In this document: positions 4,655 to 19,545 of the stretch, in pieces
Numbering within the stretch: position 1 is the first letter of the stretch
How the letters are laid out: each line of letters starts with the position of its first letter
From: a phage
DNA length: 27,455 bases
Assembly: GCA_011944185.1 (NCBI GenBank)
Contig: GCA_011944185.1_3921.2
Direction: 5' to 3' (one strand)
Program-made: the position numbers and the translations under genes
Notes under the pieces: generated by a model
Seen by the model: only the letters and a program-made list of their open reading frames with translations
The model's database searches: none
What the model was told of the DNA's origin: nothing

Positions 4655-4690
4655 TGGTACTCTTCATAAATTGAGATAGAGGTTTAAATA

Positions 4691-5595: not shown

Positions 5596-5610
5596 ATATG
5601 GAGAGCCATA

Positions 5611-6651
5611 ATGGAGAAGTACACATTAACAAAACTTCCAGATTCAGTTACACATGTCTTTATTGACTCTGACAGCATTGCCTATAAAGGTGCTTGTGTA
5701 GTTGAGAAAGCAAAGTATAAATACGTTAATAAACTCACAGCAGAAGAATCTGAACCATTTGATAATGCGAAAGATGCTGCAAGATGGTTAGCAGACCAGA
5801 GAATCCTTGTGGAAGAGCTTGGCCTGACATTTGATGAAGATGAATGGGAAAGACAAACTTGGAAAGAAGCTAAGAGTGAAAAAGAAGCTATCATGGCTAC
5901 TCAACAGGTGCTTCAGGAATGGCTTAAGGTTGTTGGTAAAGAAAGAACTTGGGTAGGTTATTTAACAGAGAAGGGTGTGCATAAACATAAAGACATTAAA
6001 GGTCTTGAGCACCAATATCAAGGTAACCGTAAAGATGCCGTCACACCAACACACTTAGTCGCTTGTCGTGAATACCTTTTATCCAGACCAGAGTTCAAGC
6101 TCTTAAAGGGAGGCTTCGAAGCCGATTCAATCGTAATTGCTAAAGCTGAAAAGATGGGTAAGAAGGCTGCTCTTATGAGTATTGACAAAGACCTTCGACA
6201 AGCTGAAGGAACTTATTGTATTGACATGACTTATGAAAAATCACCACTAATCTTTATTGCTGATAATAATGTTGGTGATATCTGGGATTGTCCTATCAAA
6301 TCAAAACCAAAAGCTGCAAAAACAGTTGGTGTAGGTTTTAAATTCTTGTGCTATCAGGCTGTTGCTGGAGATAATGCAGATAACTACTTTGGCCTTAAAG
6401 GTGCTGGTAAAGTAGCTGTGATGAATGCTTTAGATGGTAAAGAGACCTACAAAGAGTGTCTTGATGCTATCTATGAACTCTATGCTAAAAAAGACTCTTA
6501 CACCTATGTATCATGGGATGGACAGATTGTTACAAAGACACCGTTAGAGCTAATGGAACAGCATTTCTTCCTAGCTTATCAAGAAAGAAATCCAAAAGAT
6601 AATTTCTCTTTTAAGAAATATAATTGGGAGCCGTGTATGAATGAAGATTAA
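5611..6651 (+). CDS. 5'-3' exonuclease / flap endonuclease (FEN family, T5 D15-like)
   Basis: N-terminal VFIDSDSIAYKG resembles the FEN PIN-domain start; FEADSIVIAKA resembles the EADD acidic motif; GDNADNYFGLKGAGKVAV fits the H3TH motif GDxxDNxxGxxGxGxK. RBS GGAGAG before the ATG. Confidence 0.65.
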   Translation: MEKYTLTKLPDSVTHVFIDSDSIAYKGACVVEKAKYKYVNKLTAEESEPFDNAKDAARWLADQRILVEELGLTFDEDEWERQTWKEAKSEKEAIMATQQVLQEWLKVVGKERTWVGYLTEKGVHKHKDIKGLEHQYQGNRKDAVTPTHLVACREYLLSRPEFKLLKGGFEADSIVIAKAEKMGKKAALMSIDKDLRQAEGTYCIDMTYEKSPLIFIADNNVGDIWDCPIKSKPKAAKTVGVGFKFLCYQAVAGDNADNYFGLKGAGKVAVMNALDGKETYKECLDAIYELYAKKDSYTYVSWDGQIVTKTPLELMEQHFFLAYQERNPKDNFSFKKYNWEPCMNED

Positions 6652-7138
6652 AGGATTTGGCAATTGTCCTACCTATGGACATTGGGTATCTTTATGTGGG
6701 GAAGTTGACCCCACTAAACATTTTGGTTTTGTCTATTTAGTACACTGTAAGAAGACCGGACAATATTATATCGGAAAGAAACAGCTTAACAGTGTGACCA
6801 AAAGAAAAGTTGCTGGGAAGACTCGGAAGAAGGTAGTCACTAAGGAAAGTGATTGGATGACTTATGAGACTTCTTCTGAGTATATTAAAAAAGATATTGA
6901 GAGCTTTGGAAAAGAATTTTTTGACTTTTACATTATTCAAACCTACTACACAAAAGGTGGTCTAGTTTATGGTGAAGCAAATCTCCAACATAAATTCGAT
7001 GTAATGACAAAAAGGATTGACTCTAAGCTCAGACTCTTCTACAATGCCAATATTGCAGCAATTAAGTTTATCACTAAAGAAACTTATGAAGATGCTGAAA
7101 AAAGAATCCACAAGGTAATGAAAGCAAATTGTGCTTGA
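6641..7138 (+). CDS. putative GIY-YIG endonuclease-like protein
   Basis: GFVYLVHCKKTGQYYIGKK near the N-terminus fits the GIY-(10-11 aa)-YIG spacing of GIY-YIG nucleases (compare I-TevI GIYQIKNTLNNKVYVGSA). Start overlaps the exonuclease stop. Downstream catalytic Arg/Glu not confidently aligned. Confidence 0.4.
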   Translation: MKIKGFGNCPTYGHWVSLCGEVDPTKHFGFVYLVHCKKTGQYYIGKKQLNSVTKRKVAGKTRKKVVTKESDWMTYETSSEYIKKDIESFGKEFFDFYIIQTYYTKGGLVYGEANLQHKFDVMTKRIDSKLRLFYNANIAAIKFITKETYEDAEKRIHKVMKANCA

Positions 7139-7159: not shown

Positions 7160-7408
7160 ATGTTTAACAAAAGTAAAGCTGTGAGTCATGTAGCAAAAGT
7201 TGACAGCAAGATTGAAGAACTTGAGCGCATCCTTGCAAATGCCAGAGAGTCAATAATTAAAGAAGTTGAAGCTGTTGAATCACAAATGCAGCACCTAATG
7301 CTTAAACGCCAAGAGCTACGTGAGCATCTAGAATATACTGAAACACGAGAGCTAAAAGTTAACAGATATTTTAAGGAGTCCGAATGTTTAACTCAAGAGA
7401 ATCAGTAA
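7160..7408 (+). CDS. hypothetical small protein (coiled coil)
   Basis: The ORF track starts at a TTG at 7145; I prefer the ATG at 7160 preceded by GAGAGAG. Product is helical and charged. Confidence 0.45.
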   Translation: MFNKSKAVSHVAKVDSKIEELERILANARESIIKEVEAVESQMQHLMLKRQELREHLEYTETRELKVNRYFKESECLTQENQ

Positions 7409-8139
7409 AAAACTGGAATCTTCGTTGCGGAAAAACTCAAAAACAACCATACAGTAATGAGTATTGGGAGTCTTTGAAATCTCAATCTCTGTGTATGCTT
7501 GAAGAAGCAAAAGAGCTTGTAAAAGCAATTGAAGAGAAAGACCCCATTGAGACACTGGATGCTCAGGCAGATTTGCAATATGTTCTTGACGGTTTGATTT
7601 ACCTGTCACAACATGACCATAATGGTGCTATGAAAGCTGTTTGTCATAATAATGACCTGAAATACACAGACGATTATGAAGAAGCTTTAAAACGTCTTGC
7701 AGATATTGAGAAGCGTACTGGTCAAGATTGTATTGTCAGAATGTCAGTAGTTGATGGTAAAGAGTGGTACGCAATTGTTCGTGTAGCCGATGGGAAGATT
7801 ATGAAGCAATCGAATCTCCCAAAAGTACAGCTTGGTGAATACATTGTAGAACTTGAAAGCCAAGAACTTTTTGTGGTAGTATCTGATACATGCGTTATCT
7901 GCAAAGGTATTGTAGGTAGCTTAAAGGATTTGGGTGTAGATGGTTTTGTAGAAGTTAATCCAATTACCTCTAAAGCAGATAAAGATTTCTGTAAAGAGAA
8001 CGGACTATGGATTGCAGATATTGTCTACTATGATGGTGAGCAGTTCCATGTAACCTCATACCCGAAACTGAATTATGATGCTAATAACCTGAAGTGCTGG
8101 TTAAAAGGGGTTGGTTATAATGGATTCACAGAACATTAA
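7384..8139 (+). CDS. hypothetical protein; possible MazG-like NTP pyrophosphohydrolase domain at the N-terminus
   Basis: 251-aa ORF with AAGGAG 5 nt before the ATG. Residues ~35-75 (LEEAKELVKAIEEKD...LDAQADLQYVLDGL) loosely fit the EExxE...D pattern of all-alpha MazG/dUTPase-like NTPases. Weak, unverified. Confidence 0.3.
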   Translation: MFNSRESVKNWNLRCGKTQKQPYSNEYWESLKSQSLCMLEEAKELVKAIEEKDPIETLDAQADLQYVLDGLIYLSQHDHNGAMKAVCHNNDLKYTDDYEEALKRLADIEKRTGQDCIVRMSVVDGKEWYAIVRVADGKIMKQSNLPKVQLGEYIVELESQELFVVVSDTCVICKGIVGSLKDLGVDGFVEVNPITSKADKDFCKENGLWIADIVYYDGEQFHVTSYPKLNYDANNLKCWLKGVGYNGFTEH

Positions 8140-8443: not shown

Positions 8444-8771
8444 AGCGAAAAAGCTATCTTATGATGATATCATTTCTGGCGCTAAATTAGGTGTTGACAG
8501 TCTCGGACAAGACGTTAAACACGGAGACACAGTGATGTACTGTGATGACCGAAGAGGAAGAAGTGCAATCTTGTTTGGAAAAGTTGTATGTAAAATACGC
8601 GGTAATTATGTTGTTTCAGATATGGATGTCAACGTCGCACAAAAGCTCAAAACAATCATGGATAGCAAGATTTCATCATGGCTCTTAAATTGTATGCACG
8701 CATCGTCAATCACAAAGGTAAGTGATAAGTTTTACGATATGTGGCAGAATGAGCAAATTTTCAAGATTTAA
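8436..8771 (+). CDS. hypothetical protein (GTG start)
   Basis: 111-aa ORF; GTG start at 8436 with GGAG 8 nt upstream; overlaps the previous stop; followed by a strong terminator. Confidence 0.4.
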   Translation: MFKAKKLSYDDIISGAKLGVDSLGQDVKHGDTVMYCDDRRGRSAILFGKVVCKIRGNYVVSDMDVNVAQKLKTIMDSKISSWLLNCMHASSITKVSDKFYDMWQNEQIFKI

Positions 8772-8777
8772 ACTAGG

Positions 8778-8799
8778 GAGCCTCTTCGGAGGCTCTTTT
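8778..8799 (+). terminator. Rho-independent terminator (TTCG tetraloop)
   Basis: Perfect GAGCCTC-TTCG-GAGGCTC hairpin followed by TTTT. Confidence 0.6.
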
Positions 8800-8817
8800 C
8801 ATCTGTAGGATTTAAAA

Positions 8818-11052
8818 ATGATTAAGACAATTAAAAAATCAAACGGTACAGTAGTAAGCTTTGACCCAGAAAGACTGAATAAATGGGCATCATGGGCAGA
8901 TAAGCGTGGAATTATCTGGTCAGAAGTCACTATGGAAGCTATGAAACGTGTCTACGAAGGTTGCACCACAAAAGAGATGCACCAAGCCATGATTGATGTT
9001 TGTGTTGATAAACAAACTCAAGAGTACTCAGACATGGCTGGACGGCTACTTCTGGGGATTATCTACAAAGAAGCCTTTGGAGGCTTTACTAAGGTTCCTA
9101 CACTGATTACCTTCGTTAAAAATATGGAGAGAGCAGGACTTTGGGAGAAGATGGATTATTCACAGGAAGAGCTTGAATACCTGCAAGGTTACATCGTGCA
9201 CTCAAAAGATATCTCTTACGGTTATGCAGTCTTGAAACAGTTCAGAGACAAGTATGGCATCCGTGATATTAAAACGGGAAGACTTTTTGAGTCACCACAA
9301 TTTATGTTCATGGGTATGGCTATGAAAGCCTTTGAGAAGCAACCAAAGCACCGTAGACTGCAAGATGTTATCAAGCTGTACACTTACCTATCTGACCTGA
9401 AAATTAACGCTCCTACGCCTTATTTAAACGGTTTAAGAGCAACTAAATCAGGCTATGCGTCATGCTGTTTGATTAAGGCAAATGATACTGCTGAATCACT
9501 TGGTATTGCTGCAAAGGTTGCTTATGATATGACTACAAAGCAAGCTGGTATTGGTATGCTGATGGAGACTCGCACTATTGGTGATGGTATCCGTCAAAAT
9601 ACGATTGAGCACATGGGTAAGCTACCTTATTACAAGCTTGTACGTTCATCTGTAGAGGCAAATAAACAGAAGAGTCGTGGTGGTTCAGCTAATAACTTCT
9701 ACACTGCTCTAGACCCGCAGATTGAAGATTTACTGCGTTTGAAGCACCCTACAACGGTTCCTTCTAAACGTATTAATGAGATGGACTACTCATTCGGTAC
9801 AAACGATTATTTCTGGCAGTGTGTTCAGTATGATACAGATTGGTTGCTATTCTCTTACAAAGATGCACCAAAACTCTATGACATGTTCTACACAGCATCT
9901 GCTGATGAGTTTGCTATGGCAGTTGGTCACGCAGTACATTCAGGAGTTAAGCACAGACGAGTCAAGGCTCGTGAAATTGCTAAGCTGTTTATTCAACAGC
10001 GTTATGCTACAGGTCGTGTGTATCCATTCTTCACTAACAATGCAAACACACATACACCATTTAAAGAACCATTGAAGATGTCAAATCTTTGTATGGAAAT
10101 TGTATTGCCAGTGTATGGTTTTGAGAAAGAGACAGACCTTTACAGAGACGATGCTGTGAAAGAGGATGGTGAGGTTGCTCTTTGCTTCCTAACTAGTTTG
10201 GTTGCAGGGAGAATTTCAGAAGATGAATACGCTGACGTTGCTTATTATGCTCTTGCAATGGTTGACTCCGTTATTGACCTTATGGATTATCCGTATCCGT
10301 CGATGCGTAACCATGTTCAGAAGCGTCGTTCTGTTGGGATTGGCCTTACAAATGTGGCTCACTACCTTGCGAAGAACTACGTGAACTACTCTTCACGAGC
10401 AGGTAAAACGAAGCTTCATGAGCTTGCTGAAATGCACTCTTACTACTTACACGAAGCTTCTTTAAGACTTGCTAAAGAACGTGGTGTGCCTGAGTATATG
10501 CAGTTCACTAAGTATCCTGAAGGATGGGTTCCTCCAAAGACAGCTAACAGGAAGATTGATGAGAAGCATGATGCAAAGCTAAGATATGATTGGGATGACT
10601 TAGCACAACGTATCAAAGAGAACGGTGGAATCCGTAACTCTGTATTAGAGGCTTACATGCCTAATGAGAGTTCTTCTCTGGCGACTAATACAACTAACGG
10701 CTTGTACCCAATTCGTGACTTTATTTTAACTAAAAAGTCTGCAACTGGTAACGTACTGTTTATTGTTCCAGATTATGAAGAGTTGAAGTATGTATATGAA
10801 ATTGCTTGGGATATTGATACCTTTGACCTGATTGATTGTTATGCAATTGTTCAAAAGTTCACTGGTCAAGCTATCTCTTCAGACTTCTATGTTGACTATG
10901 CAAAGTCTAAGAAGGTATCATTGGCTCAAGCTCTGAAGTATATGATTTATGCCAACTCGGTAGGTATGAAAACCATGTACTACCTTAACAGTCGCATCGG
11001 TGTAGGTAAGTCTGCACTGCAAGATGCTTATTGCGAGGGCTGTGGTGTTTAG
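8818..11052 (+). CDS. nrdA: ribonucleoside-diphosphate reductase large subunit (class Ia)
   Basis: N-terminal ATP-cone-like segment (IKKSNGTVVSFDPERL); PTPYLNGLRATKSGYASCCLIKANDTAES (active-site Cys region); NLCMEIVLP (Cys-Glu catalytic motif); PNESSSLATNTTNGLYP; C-terminal Cys pair YCEGCGV. These align to my recollection of T4/E. coli NrdA; 744 aa. Confidence 0.9.
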   Translation: MIKTIKKSNGTVVSFDPERLNKWASWADKRGIIWSEVTMEAMKRVYEGCTTKEMHQAMIDVCVDKQTQEYSDMAGRLLLGIIYKEAFGGFTKVPTLITFVKNMERAGLWEKMDYSQEELEYLQGYIVHSKDISYGYAVLKQFRDKYGIRDIKTGRLFESPQFMFMGMAMKAFEKQPKHRRLQDVIKLYTYLSDLKINAPTPYLNGLRATKSGYASCCLIKANDTAESLGIAAKVAYDMTTKQAGIGMLMETRTIGDGIRQNTIEHMGKLPYYKLVRSSVEANKQKSRGGSANNFYTALDPQIEDLLRLKHPTTVPSKRINEMDYSFGTNDYFWQCVQYDTDWLLFSYKDAPKLYDMFYTASADEFAMAVGHAVHSGVKHRRVKAREIAKLFIQQRYATGRVYPFFTNNANTHTPFKEPLKMSNLCMEIVLPVYGFEKETDLYRDDAVKEDGEVALCFLTSLVAGRISEDEYADVAYYALAMVDSVIDLMDYPYPSMRNHVQKRRSVGIGLTNVAHYLAKNYVNYSSRAGKTKLHELAEMHSYYLHEASLRLAKERGVPEYMQFTKYPEGWVPPKTANRKIDEKHDAKLRYDWDDLAQRIKENGGIRNSVLEAYMPNESSSLATNTTNGLYPIRDFILTKKSATGNVLFIVPDYEELKYVYEIAWDIDTFDLIDCYAIVQKFTGQAISSDFYVDYAKSKKVSLAQALKYMIYANSVGMKTMYYLNSRIGVGKSALQDAYCEGCGV

Positions 11053-11107
11053 TTTTAATAACTATGAGGGTCGTAAAAGACCCTCTAAAATTAACTTTGG
11101 AGAGACT

Positions 11108-11365
11108 ATGAAAGACTTAATAGCAAATCACGAGTGGCCTATATACTTGCTCCACAAACCTCGAAAAACGCTGTACTATGTGAGTAGCACAGATATGATG
11201 ATAAAACAAAATGATGACTCATGGGTCGCTGGTGTCTCTTACATCTCTACAGCAGATGGTAAAATCTATGCAAGACCTTATGACATGTTTAATAAAGAAA
11301 ATTGGGAAGTTTTAGACAGAAAACAAGCCTTAGAGATGATAAAGAAAGGAGAAATCACATTATGA
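11108..11365 (+). CDS. hypothetical small protein
   Basis: The ORF track entry 11024..11365 overlaps the nrdA 3' end; first ATG with an RBS (GGAGAGACT) is at 11108. Stop overlaps the nrdB start as ATGA. Confidence 0.45.
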   Translation: MKDLIANHEWPIYLLHKPRKTLYYVSSTDMMIKQNDDSWVAGVSYISTADGKIYARPYDMFNKENWEVLDRKQALEMIKKGEITL

Positions 11366-12435
11366 TTAACCAACACCCAATCTTTTTAGGTGGTGAGAGA
11401 AAGACATTTGACTCACTTAACAAGCACTACCCAAAAATCTTTGAGCTATATAAACAACAAAAAGCGCAAGACTGGTCAGAAGATGAGTTCCCTTTTGAAC
11501 AATCACGTCTTGATTTTGAAAGTGTGCCAGCATCAATGTCAGGTGTAATGCTTGAGATTCTTAAGTGGCAGTGGGAAGCAGATACCCAAGTTGCTAAAAG
11601 TTTAGCGTTTGCTTTTGCACCATTCATCTCTGATGACATTTATGCAACTGCAATTATGAAGCAGTCTGAGATTGAAAACCTACACGCCCTGACTTACTCG
11701 GAGATTGTAAGGCAATGTATTAAAAATCCTGAAACAATCTTAGATGAGATTAACCAGAACATTGCTGTACAAGACCGATTAAAAACTGTGAATCGTGTTC
11801 TTGAAGAATTGCTGGATGAAGGTATAAACTATCGACTGAGTTATGTCCGTGACTCACTTCTGGACAAAGACCCTTTACACTTCCATAAAGTGATTCTGAA
11901 AGGTCTATTTGCAGTGACTGCACTGGAAGGTATATCTTTTATGGCATCCTTTGCATGTACTTTTGCACTTGATGCTCAAGATAAATTTCAGGGTATTGCT
12001 CAAGCTGTTCAGAAAATTATGCTTGATGAAATCCTTCACACTAAAATTGATATTGAAGTTTTAAAAGAAACTTTAAGAGACGATGAGTGGCAAAAAGCTT
12101 TCCAACAAATTCTTCCAGAGATTAAAGTAATCTTAGATGAAGTAGTTGAAAGCGAAGAAAAATGGTCGTATTATATCTTCTCCGAAGGACGTGCTGTAGT
12201 TGGTTTAAATACAAAGCTTCTCCATGAGTGGGTTTACTATAATGCTGCCCCACTGTATGATATGTTTGGCATTCCCAGAGATTTTGTAGCTCCTAAAGAA
12301 CCACCTTTGAAGTATATGATTAAGAAGATGGAAATTGATAAAGAGCAGAATGCTAATCAGGAGCAACAGAACGGCGCGTACTTATTGAATACTGTTGTAG
12401 ATGATTTGAATAGTGGATTTTTAGAGGTTCCTTAA
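11362..12435 (+). CDS. nrdB: ribonucleoside-diphosphate reductase small subunit (class Ia)
   Basis: 357 aa from the ATG at 11362 (RBS AAGGAGAAA). Size and predicted all-helical ferritin-like character fit NrdB, and it lies between nrdA and the redoxin gene. The ORF track start at 11302 is probably an upstream non-ATG extension. Diiron ligands not individually verified. Confidence 0.8.
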   Translation: MINQHPIFLGGERKTFDSLNKHYPKIFELYKQQKAQDWSEDEFPFEQSRLDFESVPASMSGVMLEILKWQWEADTQVAKSLAFAFAPFISDDIYATAIMKQSEIENLHALTYSEIVRQCIKNPETILDEINQNIAVQDRLKTVNRVLEELLDEGINYRLSYVRDSLLDKDPLHFHKVILKGLFAVTALEGISFMASFACTFALDAQDKFQGIAQAVQKIMLDEILHTKIDIEVLKETLRDDEWQKAFQQILPEIKVILDEVVESEEKWSYYIFSEGRAVVGLNTKLLHEWVYYNAAPLYDMFGIPRDFVAPKEPPLKYMIKKMEIDKEQNANQEQQNGAYLLNTVVDDLNSGFLEVP

Positions 12436-12677
12436 TGACTTATGTGATTTACTCCAAAACTGGATGCCCTCAGTGTGAGACTGCAAAGAATTTTGCAAAA
12501 GCTCGTGGTATTGACCATGTTGTGAGAATGTTAGGGCAGGATTATGAACTGTCAGACCTGATGGATATTGCACAGATGCCAGTTCGTCAGATGCCGTTCA
12601 TCATGAAAACTGATGGACAAAACCTAAAACCTGTTGGAACGCTACAGAATTTTATGGCAGAGGTGAATAATGCTTAA
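12435..12677 (+). CDS. nrdH: glutaredoxin-like NrdH/thioredoxin-family redoxin
   Basis: 80-aa protein with CPQC redox motif near the N-terminus (SKTGCPQCETAK), a size typical of NrdH-redoxins; immediately downstream of nrdB (TAATG overlap). Confidence 0.7.
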   Translation: MTYVIYSKTGCPQCETAKNFAKARGIDHVVRMLGQDYELSDLMDIAQMPVRQMPFIMKTDGQNLKPVGTLQNFMAEVNNA

Positions 12678-12876
12678 ACGCCTTTGGGAAGGTTTGGTTG
12701 TTGATGCACCAGCTATTGTGATTGGTATGCTTGTTGTTAACCTATTTACTGATTTTGAACAAGGTTCATTGTTTGGGGCCATGTTACTATGGGTTATCTT
12801 TGAAATATTAGAGATACAGCTAGGCATCACTGAAAAACTGAGAAAACTCGTTTCTAAGTTTTCTAAAAAGATTTAA
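12670..12876 (+). CDS. small hydrophobic (membrane) protein
   Basis: 68 aa with a long hydrophobic stretch (VVDAPAIVIGMLVVNLF...LFGAMLLWVIFEILEI); GAGGTG RBS; overlaps the nrdH stop. Confidence 0.45.
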   Translation: MLKRLWEGLVVDAPAIVIGMLVVNLFTDFEQGSLFGAMLLWVIFEILEIQLGITEKLRKLVSKFSKKI

Positions 12877-12883
12877 AATGAAA

Positions 12884-12905
12884 GGGTCTCTTCGGAGACC
12901 TTTTT
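12884..12905 (+). terminator. Rho-independent terminator (TTCG tetraloop)
   Basis: GGGTCTC-TTCG-GAGACC hairpin followed by TTTTT. Confidence 0.6.
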
Positions 12906-12924
12906 AGCATGTAAAGGGGCAATA

Positions 12925-15069
12925 ATGAACAAAGTACAGATTATTAAAAAGAATGGCTCACTTGAAGAACCTGATATCAAAAAAGTTTTAGCGGCAGTAA
13001 CAAAGTCAGCTAACAGGGTTGGATATAAAGAACTGCCACCAGATGTTACCCAAGCTCTTGAGTCAGCATTCATGAGGATTTTGGTAAAGTCCACTAAGCA
13101 GAATAATTTGCTTATCTCGGTAAATGATATTCACAGTATTGTTGAAGGTGCTTTGGCAGAGGTCAATCACGAGATTTATGAGTCTTACTCAACATACAGA
13201 AATTACCGTAAAGAGGTTGCTCAAAATTGGGACGAACTCTACCAGAAGACTAAAGATACACTCTTCTTAGGTGACCGTGAAAATGCTAACTTTGACAGCA
13301 GTTTAATTTCTACGAAAGGTTCAATTATCCGTGGTTACCTGACTAAAGAAATCTTTAAACAGTATCATCTAACACCAGAGGAACTTGAAGCCATTGAGAA
13401 AGGCTTTATCTATATCCACGATTTGAGAGACCTGATTTTTGGTGGTATTAACTGTTGCCTGTTTGACATTGGTAAAGTACTAAAAGGTGGCTTTGAAATG
13501 TCCGGCATTGAGTACTGTGAACCTAAATCTGTACTGTCAGCGTTGCAGGTTATTGGTGACGTAGTACTTTCAGCAACTGCACAGCAATTTGGTGGTTTTA
13601 CTTTAGCAGAGATTGATAAGGTACTTGTACCGTATGCTAAGAAGTCTCTACGCTATCATGCTGAGAAAGCATCATCTTATGGTATTCCTAAAGAGCATTA
13701 CCACAATTATGTAATGGAGCAGTTACAAATTGAACTGACTCAAGGTTTTCAGTCACTTGAGATGAAACTAAATACCGTACCTTGTAGCCGTGGTGATTTT
13801 GCATTCACAACTTTAACATTTGGTTTACTTGACTCAGATATGTCTAATGAGGATAATCGACTACAATACATGATTGCAAGTACTCTCCTAGATGTTCGTA
13901 TGAATGGACAAGGCAAGAGTAAAAAGCCTGTTGTATTCCCTAAACTGGTTTATATTTATGACCAGAAGAGACATGATGAAAATATCTGTCAAGGTCACCT
14001 GTACAGTAAAGCTATTGAGTGTTGCTCTAAAGCAATGTACCCAGATTTCTTAAGTGTGTCTGGTCATGGTGCTGTAGCAGAGGCTTTTGAGCGTTCTGGT
14101 AAGGTAATTTCACCGATGGGTTGCAGAGCCTTTTTATCTCCATATCTTAATGAGGGTGGAGAAGAGTTCTACGTTGGTCGTGCTAACATTGGTGCTGTAT
14201 CTTTGAACTTACCAATGATTTACCAGTATTCTAAAGAGAATGGTTTAGATTTCTGGAAAGAGCTTGATAAGTACCTAGAGATGATTCGCAACTTCCACAA
14301 GAAACGCTACGAAATGATTGCTAATATGCCAGCAAGTTCTAACCCTCTTGCGTTCACACAAGGTGGTCTGTACAAAGGAACTAAGAAACCTACTGACAAG
14401 GTTGGTTGGGATATTGTGAAGTCCTTCACAGCTTCTTTTGGTGTTACTGCGCTTGATGAGTTGTCTGTTCTTGCTGAAGGTAAACGACTTCATGAAGTTG
14501 GAAGCTATAGTTTTGCATACGATGTTCTGGCATACATCAACATGAAAACTGAAGAGTTTAAAAATGAAGATGGCTTCTTATATGCCGTCTATGGTACTCC
14601 AGCAGAATCACTTTGTGGAACTCAGCTAAAACAGTTCAGAGATATGTTTGGCGTTATCAAAGGTGTTTCTGATAAGGAATACTTTACAAACAGTTTCCAT
14701 ATGAATGTTGCAGCAGACATCTCACCATTTAAGAAGCAGGACTTAGAAGAGCCATTCTTCCATATCTGTAGAGGTGGGAGAATCCAGTATGTCAGGGTAG
14801 CTAACCCAGAAAACTTAACAGCACTTAAAAGCTGTATTACAAGAGGGATGTTGAAAGGTTTCTATCAGGGGCTTAACTTTGACTTAGCAATCTGTGAACA
14901 TTGTGGTAACAGACCAAAGGCTGATGTTGAAGAATGTGAAGTTTGTCACTCACATGATATCTCTGTGATTAACAGGGTGTGTGGGTATCTTGGATGGACT
15001 AAGATTAAAGGTGAATCCCGAATGAACGATGCAAAAATCGCTGAGATTCGTGACAGAGTTTCTATGTAA
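12925..15069 (+). CDS. nrdD: anaerobic ribonucleoside-triphosphate reductase (class III)
   Basis: N-terminal ATP-cone-like segment (IIKKNGSLEEPDIKKV); C-terminal Cys4 zinc ribbon (CEHCGN...CEVCHSHD) followed by the glycyl-radical motif RVCGYLG; 714 aa. Confidence 0.9.
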   Translation: MNKVQIIKKNGSLEEPDIKKVLAAVTKSANRVGYKELPPDVTQALESAFMRILVKSTKQNNLLISVNDIHSIVEGALAEVNHEIYESYSTYRNYRKEVAQNWDELYQKTKDTLFLGDRENANFDSSLISTKGSIIRGYLTKEIFKQYHLTPEELEAIEKGFIYIHDLRDLIFGGINCCLFDIGKVLKGGFEMSGIEYCEPKSVLSALQVIGDVVLSATAQQFGGFTLAEIDKVLVPYAKKSLRYHAEKASSYGIPKEHYHNYVMEQLQIELTQGFQSLEMKLNTVPCSRGDFAFTTLTFGLLDSDMSNEDNRLQYMIASTLLDVRMNGQGKSKKPVVFPKLVYIYDQKRHDENICQGHLYSKAIECCSKAMYPDFLSVSGHGAVAEAFERSGKVISPMGCRAFLSPYLNEGGEEFYVGRANIGAVSLNLPMIYQYSKENGLDFWKELDKYLEMIRNFHKKRYEMIANMPASSNPLAFTQGGLYKGTKKPTDKVGWDIVKSFTASFGVTALDELSVLAEGKRLHEVGSYSFAYDVLAYINMKTEEFKNEDGFLYAVYGTPAESLCGTQLKQFRDMFGVIKGVSDKEYFTNSFHMNVAADISPFKKQDLEEPFFHICRGGRIQYVRVANPENLTALKSCITRGMLKGFYQGLNFDLAICEHCGNRPKADVEECEVCHSHDISVINRVCGYLGWTKIKGESRMNDAKIAEIRDRVSM

Positions 15070-15079
15070 AACTTGACAT

Positions 15080-15120
15080 GGTGGTGTGAGTCTTGATAGG
15101 CTTACATCACCTTTTTTATT
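15080..15120 (+). terminator. Rho-independent terminator
   Basis: 11-bp stem GGTGGTGTGAG / CTTACATCACC (two G-U wobbles) with 10-nt loop, followed by TTTTTTATT; directly after the nrdD stop. A TTGACA hexamer sits just upstream at 15073-15078. Confidence 0.55.
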
Positions 15121-15223
15121 GGATGTTAGATATGGCAGAGAGTATTATTGGGTTGTTCATAGGTTCTGTCTTACTAGGGTTCTTTTTAGGACTCTCTTAT
15201 TGTGAATTAAGAGGCAAGTTAAA

Positions 15224-15424
15224 ATGTTTAAAATATCAAAAGCGTTGATATACATTCTCCACATTCTAATCTTCTTCTTTGGGGTTAGTGTTATGGTATG
15301 GGGTTTTTCAGACCCACAATGGAGTTTCGCATATCAGGGTCAGATGGATTTATGGTCATGCTTCAAACCATTTTTAGGGTTAGTCATAGCATTCAGTGCA
15401 TTGCCAACTAAGGTGAAATTATGA
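15224..15424 (+). CDS. small hydrophobic (membrane) protein
   Basis: 66 aa, hydrophobic (ILHILIFFFGVSVMVWGF; FLGLVIAFSAL); GAGG RBS. Confidence 0.4.
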   Translation: MFKISKALIYILHILIFFFGVSVMVWGFSDPQWSFAYQGQMDLWSCFKPFLGLVIAFSALPTKVKL

Positions 15425-15816
15425 TTAAGTTGAACAAAAAACAGTTAGAGTGGATTAAAGATTATGCCTCAGAGTGTGGCTCTTGCGAAAAGAATCACGT
15501 AAGATATTCAACATTCCATACGACCTTCACATTGTACATCAGCGACAACGTTCTAAGTGATTCCGTAGAAGATGGTGTAGCGTTACCTAATGAATTGCTT
15601 GACAAATTAGCTGTAGTCTCTGGAACTTGGTCTGAAGAAGACGGTCATGAATTATCTAACGATGTTGTCTTCTACACTCTTGAAAACATTATGAATCCAG
15701 AGTACATTATACTAATGACTTGTGCACAAGATTGTGTGCCATTACAAAACTTCATTAAAGAACACTGCGAAGAATTTATTACTAAACAGGTTCCTTGTCA
15801 GGTGGTGTTTGAATGA
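15421..15816 (+). CDS. hypothetical protein
   Basis: 131-aa ORF; AAGGTGAAA RBS; ATGA overlap with the upstream gene. No motif recognised. Confidence 0.5.
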   Translation: MIKLNKKQLEWIKDYASECGSCEKNHVRYSTFHTTFTLYISDNVLSDSVEDGVALPNELLDKLAVVSGTWSEEDGHELSNDVVFYTLENIMNPEYIILMTCAQDCVPLQNFIKEHCEEFITKQVPCQVVFE

Positions 15817-16112
15817 GTAAAACAATTCGAAGAAAAGGTTTAAAGAACGTTCATGGACTCTATGAGTGGAGAAATGAGGTACGTAACAGAGAAAATGCTT
15901 CAGATGTCTACTTCCATTCTGATATGATGTCCAGAAAAGGTGGCTCTTACGACTTCACAAGCCAGCCTTGTAGAGAGATTAAGAAGGCCACTAAACGTCT
16001 TACAAGAACACAAATAAGGCAGCTTTCTAAGACATCCTTCTTAGATGAAGATTTTGATATTGATAGCAAGTCTCCAAAGAAAGCCGCTAAGAACACTTAT
16101 ATGTATTGGTGA
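15813..16112 (+). CDS. hypothetical basic protein
   Basis: 99-aa ORF; start overlaps the upstream stop; Lys/Arg-rich. Confidence 0.45.
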   Translation: MSKTIRRKGLKNVHGLYEWRNEVRNRENASDVYFHSDMMSRKGGSYDFTSQPCREIKKATKRLTRTQIRQLSKTSFLDEDFDIDSKSPKKAAKNTYMYW

Positions 16113-16121
16113 GGTAACTAG

Positions 16122-16607
16122 ATGAATTACATAGAGATTCGACCATTTGACACAGCTAATGGTGAAGGGGTTCGTGTAAGCCTCTTCGTAGCTGGTTGTA
16201 AGCATCACTGTGAAGGTTGCTTTAATAAGGAATCTTGGAAGTTTAATGCTGGTAAAGAGTTCACTTATGCAAACCTTTATGGCATCATTAAGTTAATGGA
16301 TGATAATGCCATCAGTGGGCTGTCAATACTTGGTGGAGAACCTCTGGATGATAGAAACATTCAAGAGGTTACTAACATATGCAAACGTATTAAAACCGTT
16401 TACCCAGAAAAATCTATCTGGCTCTGGACAGGTTTTCAGTTACATGAAAAAATTCACCTTGATGTGATGAAATATGTTGACGTGGTGATTGATGGTAAGT
16501 ATGATTCATCTAAACCAACAGTTAAACCGTATCGTGGTTCAGATAACCAAAACCTCTGGAGAAAAGAGTACGGATGGCAAGGTGATTGTCAGTGGAGAGC
16601 AGAGTGA
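16122..16607 (+). CDS. nrdG: anaerobic ribonucleotide reductase activating protein (radical SAM)
   Basis: CKHHCEGC = CxxxCxxC radical-SAM cluster motif near the N-terminus; 161 aa (T4 NrdG is about 156 aa); sits close to nrdD. Confidence 0.8.
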   Translation: MNYIEIRPFDTANGEGVRVSLFVAGCKHHCEGCFNKESWKFNAGKEFTYANLYGIIKLMDDNAISGLSILGGEPLDDRNIQEVTNICKRIKTVYPEKSIWLWTGFQLHEKIHLDVMKYVDVVIDGKYDSSKPTVKPYRGSDNQNLWRKEYGWQGDCQWRAE

Positions 16608-16689
16608 TTATTCTGGCAAATGGACTAAGGTATAACTCCAATTGGTATCACTGAAGAAGAACTTCATAAGTTCTGTATTAAACTTTAAT

Positions 16690-16713
16690 GAGAGAGAGAG
16701 AGAGAGAGAGAGA
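16690..16713. repeat. (GA)12 dinucleotide microsatellite immediately upstream of a start codon
   Basis: Perfect GAGAGAGAGAGAGAGAGAGAGAGA at 16690-16713; the ATG at 16720 follows 6 nt later. Confidence 0.95.
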
Positions 16714-16719
16714 CTAAAA

Positions 16720-16986
16720 ATGGGAATTTTAGGTAATATGAAAGCTGGATTCTTGAAGGCACTGGCAAAAGCAGCAGCAATTGTTGCTATGACTGGAAAG
16801 CAGGTCGGTGTGGATGCTTCAGCGGTTGCACAGGTTCTTACAAGCCAAATTGAACAGCAGCCTTACATCTATGTAGGCCGTGGCAAAGGTGGTAAGAAAC
16901 AAGCCCACCGTCCGTCTGGTGCAGCAGCTATTAAACGAGCAGCTAAGAAAGCTCGTAACCGTAAACGTAATAAGAAGGCTAGATAA
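16720..16986 (+). CDS. small protein with hydrophobic N-terminus and polybasic C-terminal tail
   Basis: 88 aa from the first ATG; the ORF track starts at a TTG at 16642 and reads through the GA repeat as (ER)n. N-terminal GFLKALAKAAAIVAMTG; C-terminal GGKKQAHRPSGAAAIKRAAKKARNRKRNKKAR. Confidence 0.45.
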   Translation: MGILGNMKAGFLKALAKAAAIVAMTGKQVGVDASAVAQVLTSQIEQQPYIYVGRGKGGKKQAHRPSGAAAIKRAAKKARNRKRNKKAR

Positions 16987-16988
16987 CC

Positions 16989-17300
16989 ATGAGCAAAATC
17001 TATAACACTCGTAAATTACAGATTGCAATCCTGTGCCAGTTTATGGCTGATAAGCACAACTCACACTATTGTGGTACAGGTTTCCTTATGCAAGGTCGTG
17101 GCTACATTAGCTTCAAAGAAGCTGTGAAGATGTACAATGAGCACCCTGAAGATGACAAAGAGTTGAAACAACTGAAGCTTACTTATGACAAGAAGCGTAA
17201 GAAAATTGTATGCTTGAACAACCTTATCAAGCAAACTGAAAACGTTTATGATGCAATTGGTGAAGAGGGTTTCTTAAAAGTCTTGAAAATAGCTCAGTAA
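16989..17300 (+). CDS. hypothetical protein
   Basis: 103-aa ORF followed by a perfect terminator. No motif recognised. Confidence 0.45.
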   Translation: MSKIYNTRKLQIAILCQFMADKHNSHYCGTGFLMQGRGYISFKEAVKMYNEHPEDDKELKQLKLTYDKKRKKIVCLNNLIKQTENVYDAIGEEGFLKVLKIAQ

Positions 17301-18149: not shown

Positions 18150-19031
18150 ATGAAAACATCTATACGTGTTACAGTTCATTCACCAACTAAAGGAACTCAT
18201 GAAGAAGAGTTTAACATCATCCAATTTCCTTCTGGTGAGATTGGTGGACACTTTTCGCCAGAGTTTGTTGATTTCACTGCTTATGCAGCATCATCCATCA
18301 ACAATGTGATTATGATTGTAAAAGGTTATGATAAGGACACATTGTTTGCTGTGGCACTTGCTAAAGAAGCAATTGATGATTTAATTCCTCACGATTATGC
18401 TTTAAAGACTGTCATCTTTTACTACTTACCAAATGCACGATATGACCGTCACATGTTTAAAGGCGACGCAGCAGCTTTAAAGGTTTTTGCTAAACAGATT
18501 AATGCAATGGGGTTTGGCGCAGTCTGTGCAGTTGACCCTCACAGCTATGTACCAGATAACCTGTTTAACTGCTTCCAGAGTATTCCTCAAAAGGAAATTG
18601 CAGTCCACTATGCAAATGACCCACTGATTGATTACTTAGTAGCCCCAGATGCAGGTGCTGCTAAGAAGATTGCAGAGACTGCTAAAGAGGTGGATAAACC
18701 ATACATCACAATGTCTAAGGTGCGTAACCTTAAGACTGGTGAAATTACTGGTATGCGAATCCTTGATGATGTTGATTTGACAGATAAAACCGTTATGATT
18801 CTGGATGATATCTGTGATGGTGGTCGAACCTTCATAGAAGCAGCGAAACATCTTCGTGAAGCAGGTGCAAAACGTGTGGAACTTTATGTAACACATGGTA
18901 TCTTCTCTAAAGATGTTGAAAACCTTCTTGACAATGGTATCGACCATATTTACACTACAAACTCTTTAGGCGAAGCTAAAGACCGTGGCTTAACACATTA
19001 TGGTCAAGTTACTGTAGCGAACCTTGATTAG
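18150..19031 (+). CDS. ribose-phosphate pyrophosphokinase (Prs)-family protein; PRPP synthetase or ADPR-pyrophosphate synthetase-like
   Basis: C-terminal half aligns with E. coli Prs as I recall it: VAPDAGAAKKIAE...VMILDDICDGGRTFIEAAKHLREAGAKRVELYVTHGIFS vs VSPDIGGVVRARA...[38 protein letters not shown]; DPHS resembles the Prs DLHA motif. The PRTase loop reads DGGRT where I recall DTGGT in Prs. The ORF track starts at a TTG at 18135; I prefer the ATG at 18150 after GAGAGAG. Confidence 0.75.
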   Translation: MKTSIRVTVHSPTKGTHEEEFNIIQFPSGEIGGHFSPEFVDFTAYAASSINNVIMIVKGYDKDTLFAVALAKEAIDDLIPHDYALKTVIFYYLPNARYDRHMFKGDAAALKVFAKQINAMGFGAVCAVDPHSYVPDNLFNCFQSIPQKEIAVHYANDPLIDYLVAPDAGAAKKIAETAKEVDKPYITMSKVRNLKTGEITGMRILDDVDLTDKTVMILDDICDGGRTFIEAAKHLREAGAKRVELYVTHGIFSKDVENLLDNGIDHIYTTNSLGEAKDRGLTHYGQVTVANLD

Positions 19032-19039
19032 GTAACAGT

Positions 19040-19531
19040 ATGAATAAGGGTTATTTTGAAAAATACCTAATATATGAACCAGATACAGGTTTATTAATTT
19101 GGAGAGTAACCCTTTGCAGTACCGCTATTGCTGGTAATGTGGCTGGCACAAAGTCTAAGAAGGGTTATATCCAAGTCCAGATAAATAAGAAGAGGTACTA
19201 TGCACATAATATTGCATGGATTATGTCTGGAGGTGAGATACCAAGTGGATATGAGATAGACCACATAGACCTTGATAAAGCTAATAATAAGTTGGAGAAT
19301 TTAAGACTTAGCACAAAGTCACAAAATCAGAGGAATAGGGGTATACACAAGAATAATAAAACTGGTGTGAAGGGTGTAAGTTTTTGTAAACAAACAGGTC
19401 TTTACAAAGCAAGAGTCATGCTTTACCATAAAGAATACTTTTGTGGAAGATTTAAAACGGTAGAAGAAGCAAAAGAAGCTGTAATTAAAAAGCGAATAGA
19501 ACTTCATGGTGAGTTTGCAAGACATAACTAA
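19040..19531 (+). CDS. free-standing HNH homing endonuclease with AP2-type DNA-binding domain
   Basis: YAHNIAWIMSGGEIPSGYEIDHIDLDKANNKLENLRL matches the HNH_3 pattern; C-terminal KTGVKGVSFCKQTGLYKARV...FKTVEEAKEA resembles an AP2 domain. Inserted between two functionally linked genes (Prs-like and Nampt-like). Confidence 0.75.
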   Translation: MNKGYFEKYLIYEPDTGLLIWRVTLCSTAIAGNVAGTKSKKGYIQVQINKKRYYAHNIAWIMSGGEIPSGYEIDHIDLDKANNKLENLRLSTKSQNQRNRGIHKNNKTGVKGVSFCKQTGLYKARVMLYHKEYFCGRFKTVEEAKEAVIKKRIELHGEFARHN

Positions 19532-19545
19532 GAGAGAGATAAAAT

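Follow-up and report, generated by a model that had tools for sequence, protein, structure and literature searches.

According to Dwivedi et al. 2013 (PMC3653736), 27% of the phages that encode a ribonucleotide reductase (RNR) have both a class I and a class III enzyme, as do most phages infecting facultative anaerobes. For Felix O1, a cluster of nrdABDG with a gene for an 80-aa glutaredoxin and small membrane proteins was already present in the genome paper of 2010 (PMC3185647). The annotation of phage wV8 likewise has this glutaredoxin of 80 aa, small membrane proteins and two terminators. T4, an enterobacterial myovirus, also pairs class Ia and class III enzymes with a phage redoxin (nrdA/nrdB/nrdC and nrdD/nrdG), its nrd genes being dispersed and not clustered.

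The region analysed here, 8818-16607, lies in a stretch of phage DNA of 27,455 nucleotides (the window). Over the whole window, DNA identity was 97.9% with Escherichia coli O157 typing phage 1 and 97.6% with wV8, and the source is a Felixounavirus (Ounavirinae; Felix O1-type, virulent). The region encodes NrdA, NrdB, NrdD and NrdG at full length and, between nrdB and nrdD, an 80-aa redoxin of glutaredoxin fold (Table 1), in the same gene order and with the same gene lengths as in Felix O1 and wV8. A 1-nt indel close to codon 722 shortens the annotated wV8 NrdA to 723 aa. The window, like every other relative examined, codes for 744 aa including the C-terminal Cys pair; apart from this annotation there is essentially no difference from the Felix O1 and wV8 clusters. 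The gene order is constant across Felixounavirus, Mooglevirus and Suspvirus, and the five core genes are under strong purifying selection (dN/dS 0.00-0.15). The original prediction of complete class Ia and class III sets was confirmed by full-length ORFs, Pfam and NCBIfam matches and catalytic residues in place, the proteins being colinear with their E. coli and T4 counterparts. The cluster is standard, intact, intron-free and ordinary for Felix O1-like enterobacterial phages; having been published for Felix O1 in 2010, it therefore contains nothing new.

Table 1. Features of the nucleotide-reduction region, in window coordinates.
Feature	Coordinates	Strand	Basis
nrdA, class I RNR large subunit, 744 aa	8818..11052	+	Pfam, NCBIfam, alignment, motifs
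Hairpin between nrdA and 85-aa ORF	11066..11085	+	dG -13.8 kcal/mol, z -2.7; no clear U-tract
85-aa hydrophilic ORF, phrog_2652	11108..11365	+	PHROG 2e-38
nrdB, class Ia-type small subunit, 357 aa from ATG	11362..12435	+	Pfam, alignment, motifs
80-aa glutaredoxin-fold redoxin, C11-P-Q-C14	12435..12677	+	Pfam, phrog_22, dN/dS
68-aa membrane protein, phrog_4532	12670..12876	+	Two TM-like segments, GRAVY 0.81, Lys-rich C-terminus
Hairpin with UUCG loop and U5 tail, between 68-aa ORF and nrdD	12879..12906	+	dG -15.8, z -4.3
nrdD, class III RNR, 714 aa	12925..15069	+	Pfam, NCBIfam, alignments, motifs
Empty group I intron site, phase 0, nrdD codons G399/C400	14121..14122	+	Junction mapping, in-silico splicing
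Intrinsic terminator after nrdD, 14-bp hairpin and U6	15080..15117	+	dG -21.8, z -5.7
38-aa single-TM protein, basic C-terminus, phrog_20082	15132..15248	+	Hydropathy
66-aa membrane protein, phrog_11929	15224..15424	+	Hydropathy, GRAVY 0.93
131-aa acidic ORF, phrog_4382	15421..15816	+	PHROG, gene order in relatives
99-aa very basic ORF, phrog_1774	15813..16112	+	PHROG; DUF5499 match below cut-off
nrdG, NrdD radical-SAM activase, 161 aa	16122..16607	+	TIGR02491, Fer4_12, motif

In the class I arm, NrdA matched Ribonuc_red_lgC (PF02867, 2e-90) and NCBIfam TIGR02506 (578 bits against a cut-off of 341), and its residues 6-730 were aligned to residues 8-739 of E. coli R1 (E 1.6e-126). In this alignment C216, N423, C425, E427 and C456 correspond to E. 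coli C225, N437, C439, E441 and C462; Y721-Y722, the equivalents of E. coli alpha Y730/Y731, and a C-terminal C739-x-x-C742 are also kept. The mechanically called nrdB ORF begins earlier than the ATG used here, at a TTG (11302). NrdB matched Ribonuc_red_sm (3.7e-34) and aligned to solved class Ia beta subunits, with D74, E105, H108, E189, E223 and H226 as metal ligands, Y112 as the radical Tyr (not Phe as in class Ic), and W38 and Y340 as radical-transfer residues (beta W48/Y356 equivalents). The dN/dS values were 0.01-0.05 for nrdA and 0.00-0.03 for nrdB.

The best model for NrdB was that of class Ia (NF006576, 131 bits) versus 40 bits for the class Ib NrdF, and no NrdI-like ORF, the class Ib partner, was found by domain searches of the cluster ORFs. 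The strict class Ia cut-offs of NCBIfam were missed by both subunits (NrdA NF006578, 504 against 813 bits; NrdB NF006576, 131 against 346); these are divergent class I enzymes and not close E. coli orthologues. Folds, radical-transfer residues and metal ligands are shared with E. coli NrdAB, and NrdA is of similar length (744 against 761 aa), whereas the C-terminal Cys pair of the phage NrdA is a CxxC, its ATP-cone appears degenerate, and the operon has its own dedicated redoxin gene. The N-terminus of NrdA aligned to the E. coli cone with a Ser at the R10 position, and the Pfam score for the cone was weak (20.5 bits, below the cut-off of 25.8); therefore, overall-activity regulation may differ from that of E. 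coli. As predicted from the sequence, NrdB would form an O2-requiring di-metal tyrosyl radical on Y112, the radical would pass from W38 and Y340 of NrdB through Y722 and Y721 of NrdA to the catalytic C425, and NrdA would act on ribonucleoside diphosphates. The resulting C216/C456 disulfide would be re-reduced via C739/C742 by the phage CPQC redoxin.

In the class III arm, NrdD matched NRDD (PF13597, 3.5e-114) and TIGR02487 (482 bits against a cut-off of 326), and its residues 4-693 aligned to residues 15-703 of a solved 734-aa NrdD. The protein carries an ATP-cone, an NCC motif (176-178), the catalytic C400 in PMGCRAF, N421, the Zn cysteines C657/C660/C671/C674 and the glycyl-radical G687 in RVCGYLG at 684. 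Its length is similar to that of E. coli NrdD and it spans the NF006732 model (712 positions) from one end to the other, while falling under the PRK09263 equivalog cut-off. The T4-type NrdD has the same catalytic motifs at about 30% identity but is without the N-terminal ATP-cone region, so that the alignment begins at residue 118 of the window protein (118-701 to T4 NrdD 20-591). NrdG scored 197 bits with TIGR02491 (cut-off 126), matched Fer4_12 (1.8e-43) and has the radical-SAM motif C26-x3-C30-x2-C33. The dN/dS values were 0.01-0.09 for nrdD and 0.02-0.15 for nrdG. The predicted activity is one in which NrdG, with its 4Fe-4S cluster, S-adenosylmethionine and electrons from host flavodoxin, would generate the glycyl radical on G687 of NrdD, which would then act on ribonucleoside triphosphates through C400. 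Formate may be the reductant, as in the enzymes of E. coli and T4 that NrdD most resembles.

Fitness data were available from a knockout screen of a relative, phage Bas63, on the laboratory host E. coli S17 under aerobic conditions; its cluster proteins (nrdD left out) are 88-99.7% identical to those of the window. Knockouts of nrdA (-0.89/-0.44/-0.05) and nrdB (-0.54/-0.54/-0.20) had negative scores and lowered fitness, and the phenotype of the redoxin (-0.10/-0.38/-0.50) tracked both. In contrast, knockouts of nrdD, nrdG and most small ORFs scored positive, up to about +1.8, and that of the 66-aa membrane ORF was noisy (-0.53/+1.55/+0.67).

The nrd genes had been described as uninterrupted in contrast to T4, and uninterrupted they are. 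Besides the colinear alignments, the Rfam search reached the gathering score nowhere in the window and had no hit at E<=1 in 8500-17000; as a positive control, it detected RF00028 in two relatives (53.6 bits in REP6, 32.2 bits in vB_Si_35FD). No intein, endonuclease or other extra domain was found by Pfam in the nrd proteins. The absence of introns is nevertheless true of this genome and not of the lineage. In 94 records of related phages a group I intron fills this nrdD site, which lies directly before the catalytic Cys codon; 61 of them have an HNH endonuclease gene, and in a further 49 related records a MobE-like endonuclease gene lies just 3' of nrdD; the window is the empty-site allele at both places. 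Felixounavirus alleles with 94-96% DNA identity (e.g. UAB_Phi87, JH2, vB_Si_35FD, BPS17S6, Bas63, REP6 and VpaE1) carry a group I intron at 399|400, either 742 nt long with an HNH_3 ORF or 316 nt long and ORF-less, and some have a MobE-like NUMOD3 endonuclease gene immediately past the nrdD stop, in addition to the intron or in its place. When the intron-bearing alleles were spliced in silico, a perfect 714-aa frame was obtained. In T4, group I introns are present in nrdB and nrdD (PMC1865063), and the T4-type nrdD intron is located at the equivalent of window residues 280|281. The contrast with T4 thus stands for this genome but is weaker than proposed, as about one-third of the close relatives have an nrdD intron, at a non-T4 site.

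Three intergenic hairpins, missing from the earlier description of the region, were also located. The one before nrdD is a predicted terminator or attenuator, with too little space for a promoter ahead of that gene. A TTGACA hexamer (15073-15078) is found just upstream of the terminator that follows nrdD, the hairpin of which is kept across genera with wobble-preserving changes. These last two hairpins are both annotated as terminators in wV8.

Three hydrophilic ORFs (11108-11365, 15421-15816 and 15813-16112) had likewise been passed over. The 85-aa ORF has a GGAGAG Shine-Dalgarno, a stop overlapping the nrdB start (ATGA), a weak match to DUF1653 (E 0.034, under the cut-off) and homologues in Erwinia, Vibrio and Pectobacterium phages; its dN/dS is about 0.1 and it is dispensable in Bas63. 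The 131-aa ORF (dN/dS about 0.08; one of its six Cys invariant) or a homologue is found upstream of nrdG across genera, adjoining nrdG where the 99-aa ORF is absent. The latter (dN/dS about 0.04) was detected in 95 phage records only, is missing from BPS17S6, JH2 and humlepung, and is a variable accessory gene. Together with the three hydrophobic ORFs, these interspersed small ORFs are probably all genuine but accessory genes.

The original prediction counted three or four tiny hydrophobic ORFs; hydropathy supported three, and there is no fourth, the other interspersed ORFs being hydrophilic. Judging from their dN/dS (0.03-0.35), these three are real genes, and it is highly unlikely that they are frames open by chance in the intergenic or regulatory DNA near nrdD. 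In favour of such an origin, the 38-aa ORF has a weak Shine-Dalgarno, lacks an annotation in several relatives, the closest one among them, and has alternative starts at ATG 15123 (41 aa) and TTG 15093 (51 aa), the longer extension overlapping the terminator hairpin; moreover, its dS against SUSP2 is low (0.35), which could reflect nucleotide-level constraint. However, in every relative that has them the three frames stay open and do not change in length, and all match PHROG families (E 1e-37 to 1e-47). The 38-aa ORF itself (dN/dS 0.03-0.27; dispensable in Bas63) is conserved in SUSP2 and Silverhawkium, and both the 68- and the 66-aa ORF are preceded by a good Shine-Dalgarno sequence. The 68-aa ORF (dN/dS 0.1-0.3; also dispensable in Bas63) overlaps the redoxin gene by 8 nt and is beside it in 258 of 258 matching records, all Ounavirinae-type; its product keeps 40-68% amino-acid identity in other genera, with polar TM residues among the invariant D12, N24, D28, Q31 and E45. 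The 66-aa ORF (dN/dS 0.23-0.35) is present in Felixounavirus relatives and not in those of Mooglevirus/Suspvirus (absent from L010, L012 and L013). As for their role, Felix O1 gp116, gp118 and gp119 are among the holin candidates selected by TM segments and charged C-termini (PMC3185647), and the two TM-like segments and Lys-rich tail of the 68-aa protein and the single TM and basic tail of the 38-aa protein would agree with a holin or antiholin. That any of the three has this function is nonetheless improbable, as the ORFs are within, and translationally coupled to, nucleotide-metabolism genes and not late or lysis genes, the sister genera do without the 66-aa ORF, and the predicted holin of Bas63 is a different gene (gene 29; knockout -0.35 to -0.48), whereas knockouts of genes 66 and 69 are positive and that of gene 70 is noisy (-0.53, +1.55, +0.67). 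Most likely, and as a guess, the three are small inner-membrane host-interaction proteins and not RNR components.

Two further alternatives concern the redoxin and the RNR sets. The redoxin gene, the start of which overlaps the nrdB stop, encodes a protein matching Glutaredoxin (PF00462, 4.4e-07, 30.5 bits against a cut-off of 22.9) and phrog_22 'thioredoxin domain' (5e-14), with weak matches only in the PDB and a dN/dS <0.1; none of the bacterial glutaredoxin equivalog cut-offs of NCBIfam was reached. Of its earlier label 'NrdH-like', a redoxin of glutaredoxin fold was upheld but an NrdH-specific identity was not, given the CPQC and the 23.3 bits obtained with TIGR02194 (cut-off 85.75, E 5.5e-05). 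NrdH proteins have an active-site motif C-(V/M)-Q-C and a conserved WSGFRP motif. The protein has the size of NrdH, its CPQC shares the Gln, and NrdH is among its weak matches (TIGR02194; E. coli NrdH 1h75, E 0.26), but several glutaredoxin models score equally weakly, Glutaredoxin is the top Pfam match, a WSGFRP-like motif was not found in the redoxin sequence, and the usual partner of NrdH is the class Ib NrdEF, not class Ia. That it acts as an NrdH-redoxin, reduced by host thioredoxin reductase and not by glutathione, is possible but doubtful. A far less probable alternative, to which we give hardly any weight, is that only one RNR set is in use, the other being a decaying relic. The dispensability of nrdD and nrdG in Bas63 on laboratory E. 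coli and the frequent targeting of nrdD by selfish elements in relatives would favour it, but both genes have dN/dS of 0.01-0.15 over three genera with every catalytic residue kept, and spliced intron-bearing nrdD alleles regain their frame. An O2-sensitive enzyme should, in addition, be dispensable in aerobic culture.

Unlike in E. coli, FNR and NrdR boxes were not found beyond chance in the region, and therefore the choice of enzyme is probably made by enzyme chemistry and not by transcription. The genes from nrdA to nrdD would apparently be co-transcribed through a leaky hairpin, with nrdG in the next unit. The use of both RNRs, under oxic and anoxic conditions, would follow by standard inference from the gene content, and the Bas63 fitness pattern fits such a division of labour. 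The region is thus very probably the nucleotide-reduction module of a Felix O1-type phage, which supplies dNTPs for phage DNA replication.

Calling of ORFs across the nrd cluster (window 8818-16607, all genes on the plus strand) reproduced the coordinates of the original prediction, and the features are collected in the table. All the residues that define the chemistry of NrdA, NrdB, NrdD and NrdG were found by alignment and motif scan. NrdA, colinear over residues 6-730 with residues 8-739 of E. coli R1 (E 1.6e-126), carried C216, N423/C425/E427, C456, Y721/Y722 and a C-terminal C739-x-x-C742; NrdB carried D74, E105, H108, E189, E223, H226, the radical tyrosine Y112, W38 and Y340. NrdD, alignable along its whole length to a solved 734-aa NrdD and, from its residue 118 onwards, to T4 NrdD, contained the NCC motif, C400, N421, four Zn cysteines and G687 in RVCGYLG, and NrdG contained the C26-x3-C30-x2-C33 motif. 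The four RNR genes gave dN/dS values of 0.00-0.15 against up to ten relatives.

Features of the nrd cluster, in window order (dG and z refer to hairpins, dN/dS to ORFs)
Feature	Position	Length	Description	dN/dS or stability
nrdA	8818-11052	744 aa	RNR barrel and all-alpha domain matches	
hairpin 1	11066-11085		no clear U-tract	dG -13.8 kcal/mol, z -2.7
85-aa ORF	11108-11365	85 aa	hydrophilic	about 0.1
nrdB	ATG at 11362	357 aa	full-length alignment to solved class Ia beta subunits	
redoxin (grx)	12435-12677	80 aa	Pfam Glutaredoxin 30.5 bits (cut-off 22.9); active site CPQC	
68-aa ORF	12670-12876	68 aa	hydrophobic, two TM-like segments, Lys-rich tail	0.1-0.3
hairpin 2	12879-12906		UUCG loop, U5	dG -15.8 kcal/mol, z -4.3
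nrdD	12925-15069	714 aa	ATP-cone, NRDD domain and glycyl-radical domain	
hairpin 3	15080-15111		followed by U6	dG -21.8 kcal/mol, z -5.7
38-aa ORF	15132-15248	38 aa	hydrophobic, one TM segment, basic tail	0.03-0.27
66-aa ORF	15224-15424	66 aa	hydrophobic	0.23-0.35
131-aa ORF	15421-15816	131 aa	hydrophilic, acidic	about 0.08
99-aa ORF	15813-16112	99 aa	hydrophilic, very basic	about 0.04
nrdG	16122-16607	161 aa	NrdG equivalog model passed	

Neither the domain search nor the alignments revealed an extra domain, insertion or endonuclease in the nrd genes, and Rfam gave no match at the gathering score in the whole window and none at E ≤ 1 in 8500-17000. Therefore, the nrd genes are uninterrupted, as had been claimed. 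A hidden or degenerate intron was rejected on the same empty Rfam search, whose intron model does match relatives. The N-terminal ATP-cone of NrdA (window 8818-9100) scored 20.5 bits against a Pfam cut-off of 25.8 and has Ser at the position of E. coli R10; it is thus classed as degenerate from its sequence, and allosteric inhibition by dATP may be weakened or lost. In the T4 RNR, dATP inhibition is weakened or lost. As a separate observation, NrdA of phage wV8 is annotated as 723 aa, without the C-terminal Cys pair and with a longer ORF next to it, owing to a 1-nt indel at 4666-4700 of its locus (window about 10983-11017); the window and the other relatives examined all have 744 aa, and the indel is probably a sequencing or annotation artefact.

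The 7.8-kb region was 97.9% identical to Escherichia coli O157 typing phage 1 and 97.6% to wV8, and was matched by 262 phage records, 239 of which span at least 80% of it. Most of the matching records carry names of Escherichia, Salmonella, Shigella or Citrobacter phages, and every one inspected falls within the subfamily Ounavirinae. The order and orientation of the genes were identical in annotated relatives, and the G+C content was uniform across the region. The cluster sits in a replication and nucleotide-metabolism block, preceded by primase/helicase, exonuclease and MazG-like protein genes and followed by prs, nadV and rIIA/rIIB. Upstream, window 7384-8139 encodes a MazG/PRA-PH-like pyrophosphatase (Pfam 1e-05); downstream, 18150-21000 encodes a ribose-phosphate pyrophosphokinase and a nicotinamide phosphoribosyltransferase according to the annotation of the closest relative. 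The ORF at 16989-17300, labelled 'putative HNH endonuclease' in wV8 and 'endonuclease' in phage fjerdesal, matched only DUF7390 in Pfam (1.1e-15), with no HNH domain detected.

The claim that introns are absent stood for the window genome and failed for its lineage, in which 94 phage records carry an intron in nrdD, with an endonuclease gene in 61 of them. In the split gene, codon 399 is followed by a 742-nt insert encoding an HNH_3 endonuclease in vB_Si_35FD, BPS17S6, JH2, UAB_Phi87 and Bas63 (5605-6346 in related locus L003), and by an ORF-less insert of 316 nt in REP6 and others (1500-1815 in locus L006). The insert is assigned to the group I introns because the Rfam Intron_gpI model (RF00028) scored 53.6 bits for the ORF-less form (gathering score 50) and 32.2 bits (E 3e-6) for the ORF-containing one, the last nucleotide of the 5' exon is U and that of the insert G, in-silico removal of the insert restores a stop-free frame of 714 aa about 98% identical to the window NrdD, and the GenBank record of Bas63 (MZ501086) already annotates nrdD as a join. 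On the ORF-less score, the U/G ends and the stop-free splice, true genes-in-pieces were also rejected for these relatives. The corresponding position in the window, 14121|14122 (codons 399|400, PMG|CRAF), is an empty site directly 5' of the catalytic Cys codon and, as the cluster is present in about 258-262 records, represents the majority allele. An intron site shared with T4 was rejected, since the T4-type nrdD intron, examined in the T4-like phage HY03, corresponds to window residues 280|281 and the Felixounavirus one to 399|400. In the marine Vibrio phage 1.084.O, nrdD is split at PMG|C, the site of the Felixounavirus intron. Felixounavirus, T4-like, Campylobacter-phage and Vibrio-phage records share a 42-nt stretch of the intron core at 95% identity or more. 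In addition, in 49 records the nrdD stop is followed directly by a free-standing gene for a MobE-like (NUMOD3) endonuclease, 5' of the conserved terminator hairpin (6555-7121 in related locus L004, window about 15069-15072); the window lacks this gene.

The best-supported mechanism is the conventional one of a phage-encoded dNTP supply, in which the phage redoxin would re-reduce an O2-dependent class Ia enzyme and NrdG would activate an O2-sensitive class III enzyme of the glycyl-radical type. The genes are identified, intact, conserved and under selection, and we infer their activities, reductants and a division of labour between oxic and anoxic conditions. Most phages of facultative anaerobes encode class I and III RNRs (Dwivedi et al., PMC3653736). 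In the relative Bas63, whose cluster proteins are 88-99.7% identical to those of the window (nrdD excluded from the comparison), PhageMaP knockout on E. coli S17 gave negative scores, that is, a costly loss, for nrdA, nrdB and the redoxin gene, and positive scores for nrdD, nrdG and most small ORFs; the scores of the 66-aa membrane ORF were noisy (-0.53/+1.55/+0.67). The oxic/anoxic reading fits both this data set and the survey of Dwivedi et al.

The redoxin had been labelled 'NrdH-like', a label that was not sustained, as the protein reached 23.3 of the 85.75 bits required by the NrdH model and fell below the cut-off of every specific NCBIfam model; only the general Glutaredoxin model was passed, and the PDB matches were marginal. 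On these scores the name 'glutaredoxin-fold redoxin' is justified and 'NrdH' is not. The start of its gene overlaps the nrdB stop. Because its knockout phenotype in Bas63 follows that of nrdA and nrdB, the data support, without proving, the role of reductant of the phage class Ia enzyme proposed in the Felix O1 paper (PMC3185647).

The 'three or four' tiny hydrophobic ORFs of the original prediction proved to be three, within a total of six interspersed ORFs. All six matched PHROG families, and dN/dS against up to ten relatives indicated purifying selection on each. The 38-aa ORF is kept in Suspvirus and Mooglevirus too, and the 66-aa ORF is absent from relatives in both. A start of the 38-aa ORF at ATG 15132, or at ATG 15123 as in 41-aa annotations, is more plausible than the TTG inside the terminator hairpin used for the 51-aa form of wV8. 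Its dS to SUSP2 (0.35) was below that of the neighbouring genes compared (0.56-2.0); the sample is small, and the cause may be constraint on the nucleotide sequence or a recombination tract. In every relative examined, nrdG is preceded by the 131-aa ORF or a homologue, and immediately where the 99-aa ORF is missing; as only one of the six cysteines of the 131-aa protein is invariant across genera, this Cys-rich acidic protein was rejected as an Fe-S/Zn electron donor for NrdG. The 99-aa ORF is a variable accessory gene, present in only 95 phage records and missing from BPS17S6, JH2 and humlepung; it gave a sub-cut-off match to DUF5499 and has distant homologues only in Yersinia and Pectobacterium phages. 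In fjerdesal, an insertion of ~100 bp (its locus about 8810-8905) separates this ORF from nrdG at window 16112-16122, where the window lacks it, and NrdG is unusually divergent (90% amino-acid identity). The 85-aa ORF has homologues in Erwinia, Vibrio and Pectobacterium phages (32-48% identity); a YfaE-like ferredoxin was rejected for it, as it has no Cys and gave only a sub-threshold match to DUF1653 (E 0.034).

A role of the 68-aa protein as a dedicated membrane partner of the nucleotide-reduction machinery, and not an unrelated passenger, was considered because its gene and that of the redoxin share 8 nt in all the Ounavirinae genomes found, occurring together in 258 of 258 matching records at identities down to 40%, and because acidic and polar residues are invariant inside its TM segments. 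Such a partner could, for example, tether the redoxin and the RNR complex at the inner membrane, or condition RNR use in particular hosts or oxygen regimes. This role is judged highly improbable, because the protein lacks cysteines and its evolution is several-fold faster than that of the redoxin, whose knockout in Bas63 was costly where that of the 68-aa ORF was neutral. An older idea, that the small membrane proteins of the cluster are holins (PMC3185647), was weighed against the Bas63 knockout scores and the prediction of another Bas63 gene as the holin, and these argue against it. An accessory interaction with the host at the inner membrane is the most likely role of the small membrane proteins, but this is a guess.

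Stable hairpins fill three intergenic gaps of the cluster, and those at 12879-12906 and 15080-15111 are terminators in the wV8 annotation. As only about 18 nt separate the former from the nrdD start, expression of nrdD probably depends on read-through from the nrdA operon. The hairpin at 15080-15111 persists across genera, where wobble changes preserve its base pairs, and moves with the downstream genes where an endonuclease gene is inserted upstream of it. Window 15073-15117, with this hairpin and an adjacent TTGACA hexamer, is almost invariant in three genera. Regulation of the cluster by host oxygen or dNTP signals was rejected, as searches for FNR and NrdR boxes gave chance-level matches only, none of them within the cluster; the sigma-70 promoter scan was uninformative (31 matches, 25 ± 3.7 expected).

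Nothing in the cluster is new. A description from 2010 (PMC3185647) already covers the nrdABDG cluster with an 80-aa glutaredoxin, the lack of introns in Felix O1 and the small TM proteins, and reports of a split nrdD in relatives date from 2013-2016 (PMC4837284). Among minor points, what may be under-appreciated is that a genuine group I intron, with or without an ORF, splits nrdD of relatives at the catalytic Cys codon, as well as that the redoxin is not NrdH, that the NrdA ATP-cone is degenerate and that a 1-nt indel accounts for the 723-aa NrdA of wV8. As a textbook auxiliary module of nucleotide metabolism, known from Felix O1 and wV8 since publications of 2009-2010 and found in more than 250 sequenced relatives, the cluster matters little as a discovery, and what is useful here is of a practical kind. 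In annotation, the redoxin should be called a glutaredoxin-fold redoxin instead of NrdH, and the three tiny membrane genes are real, yet dispensable in aerobic laboratory culture. The nrdD locus is a hot spot for selfish elements in the lineage, at which the window carries the intron-free and endonuclease-free alleles; therefore, this phage would be a natural recipient in intron-homing crosses.
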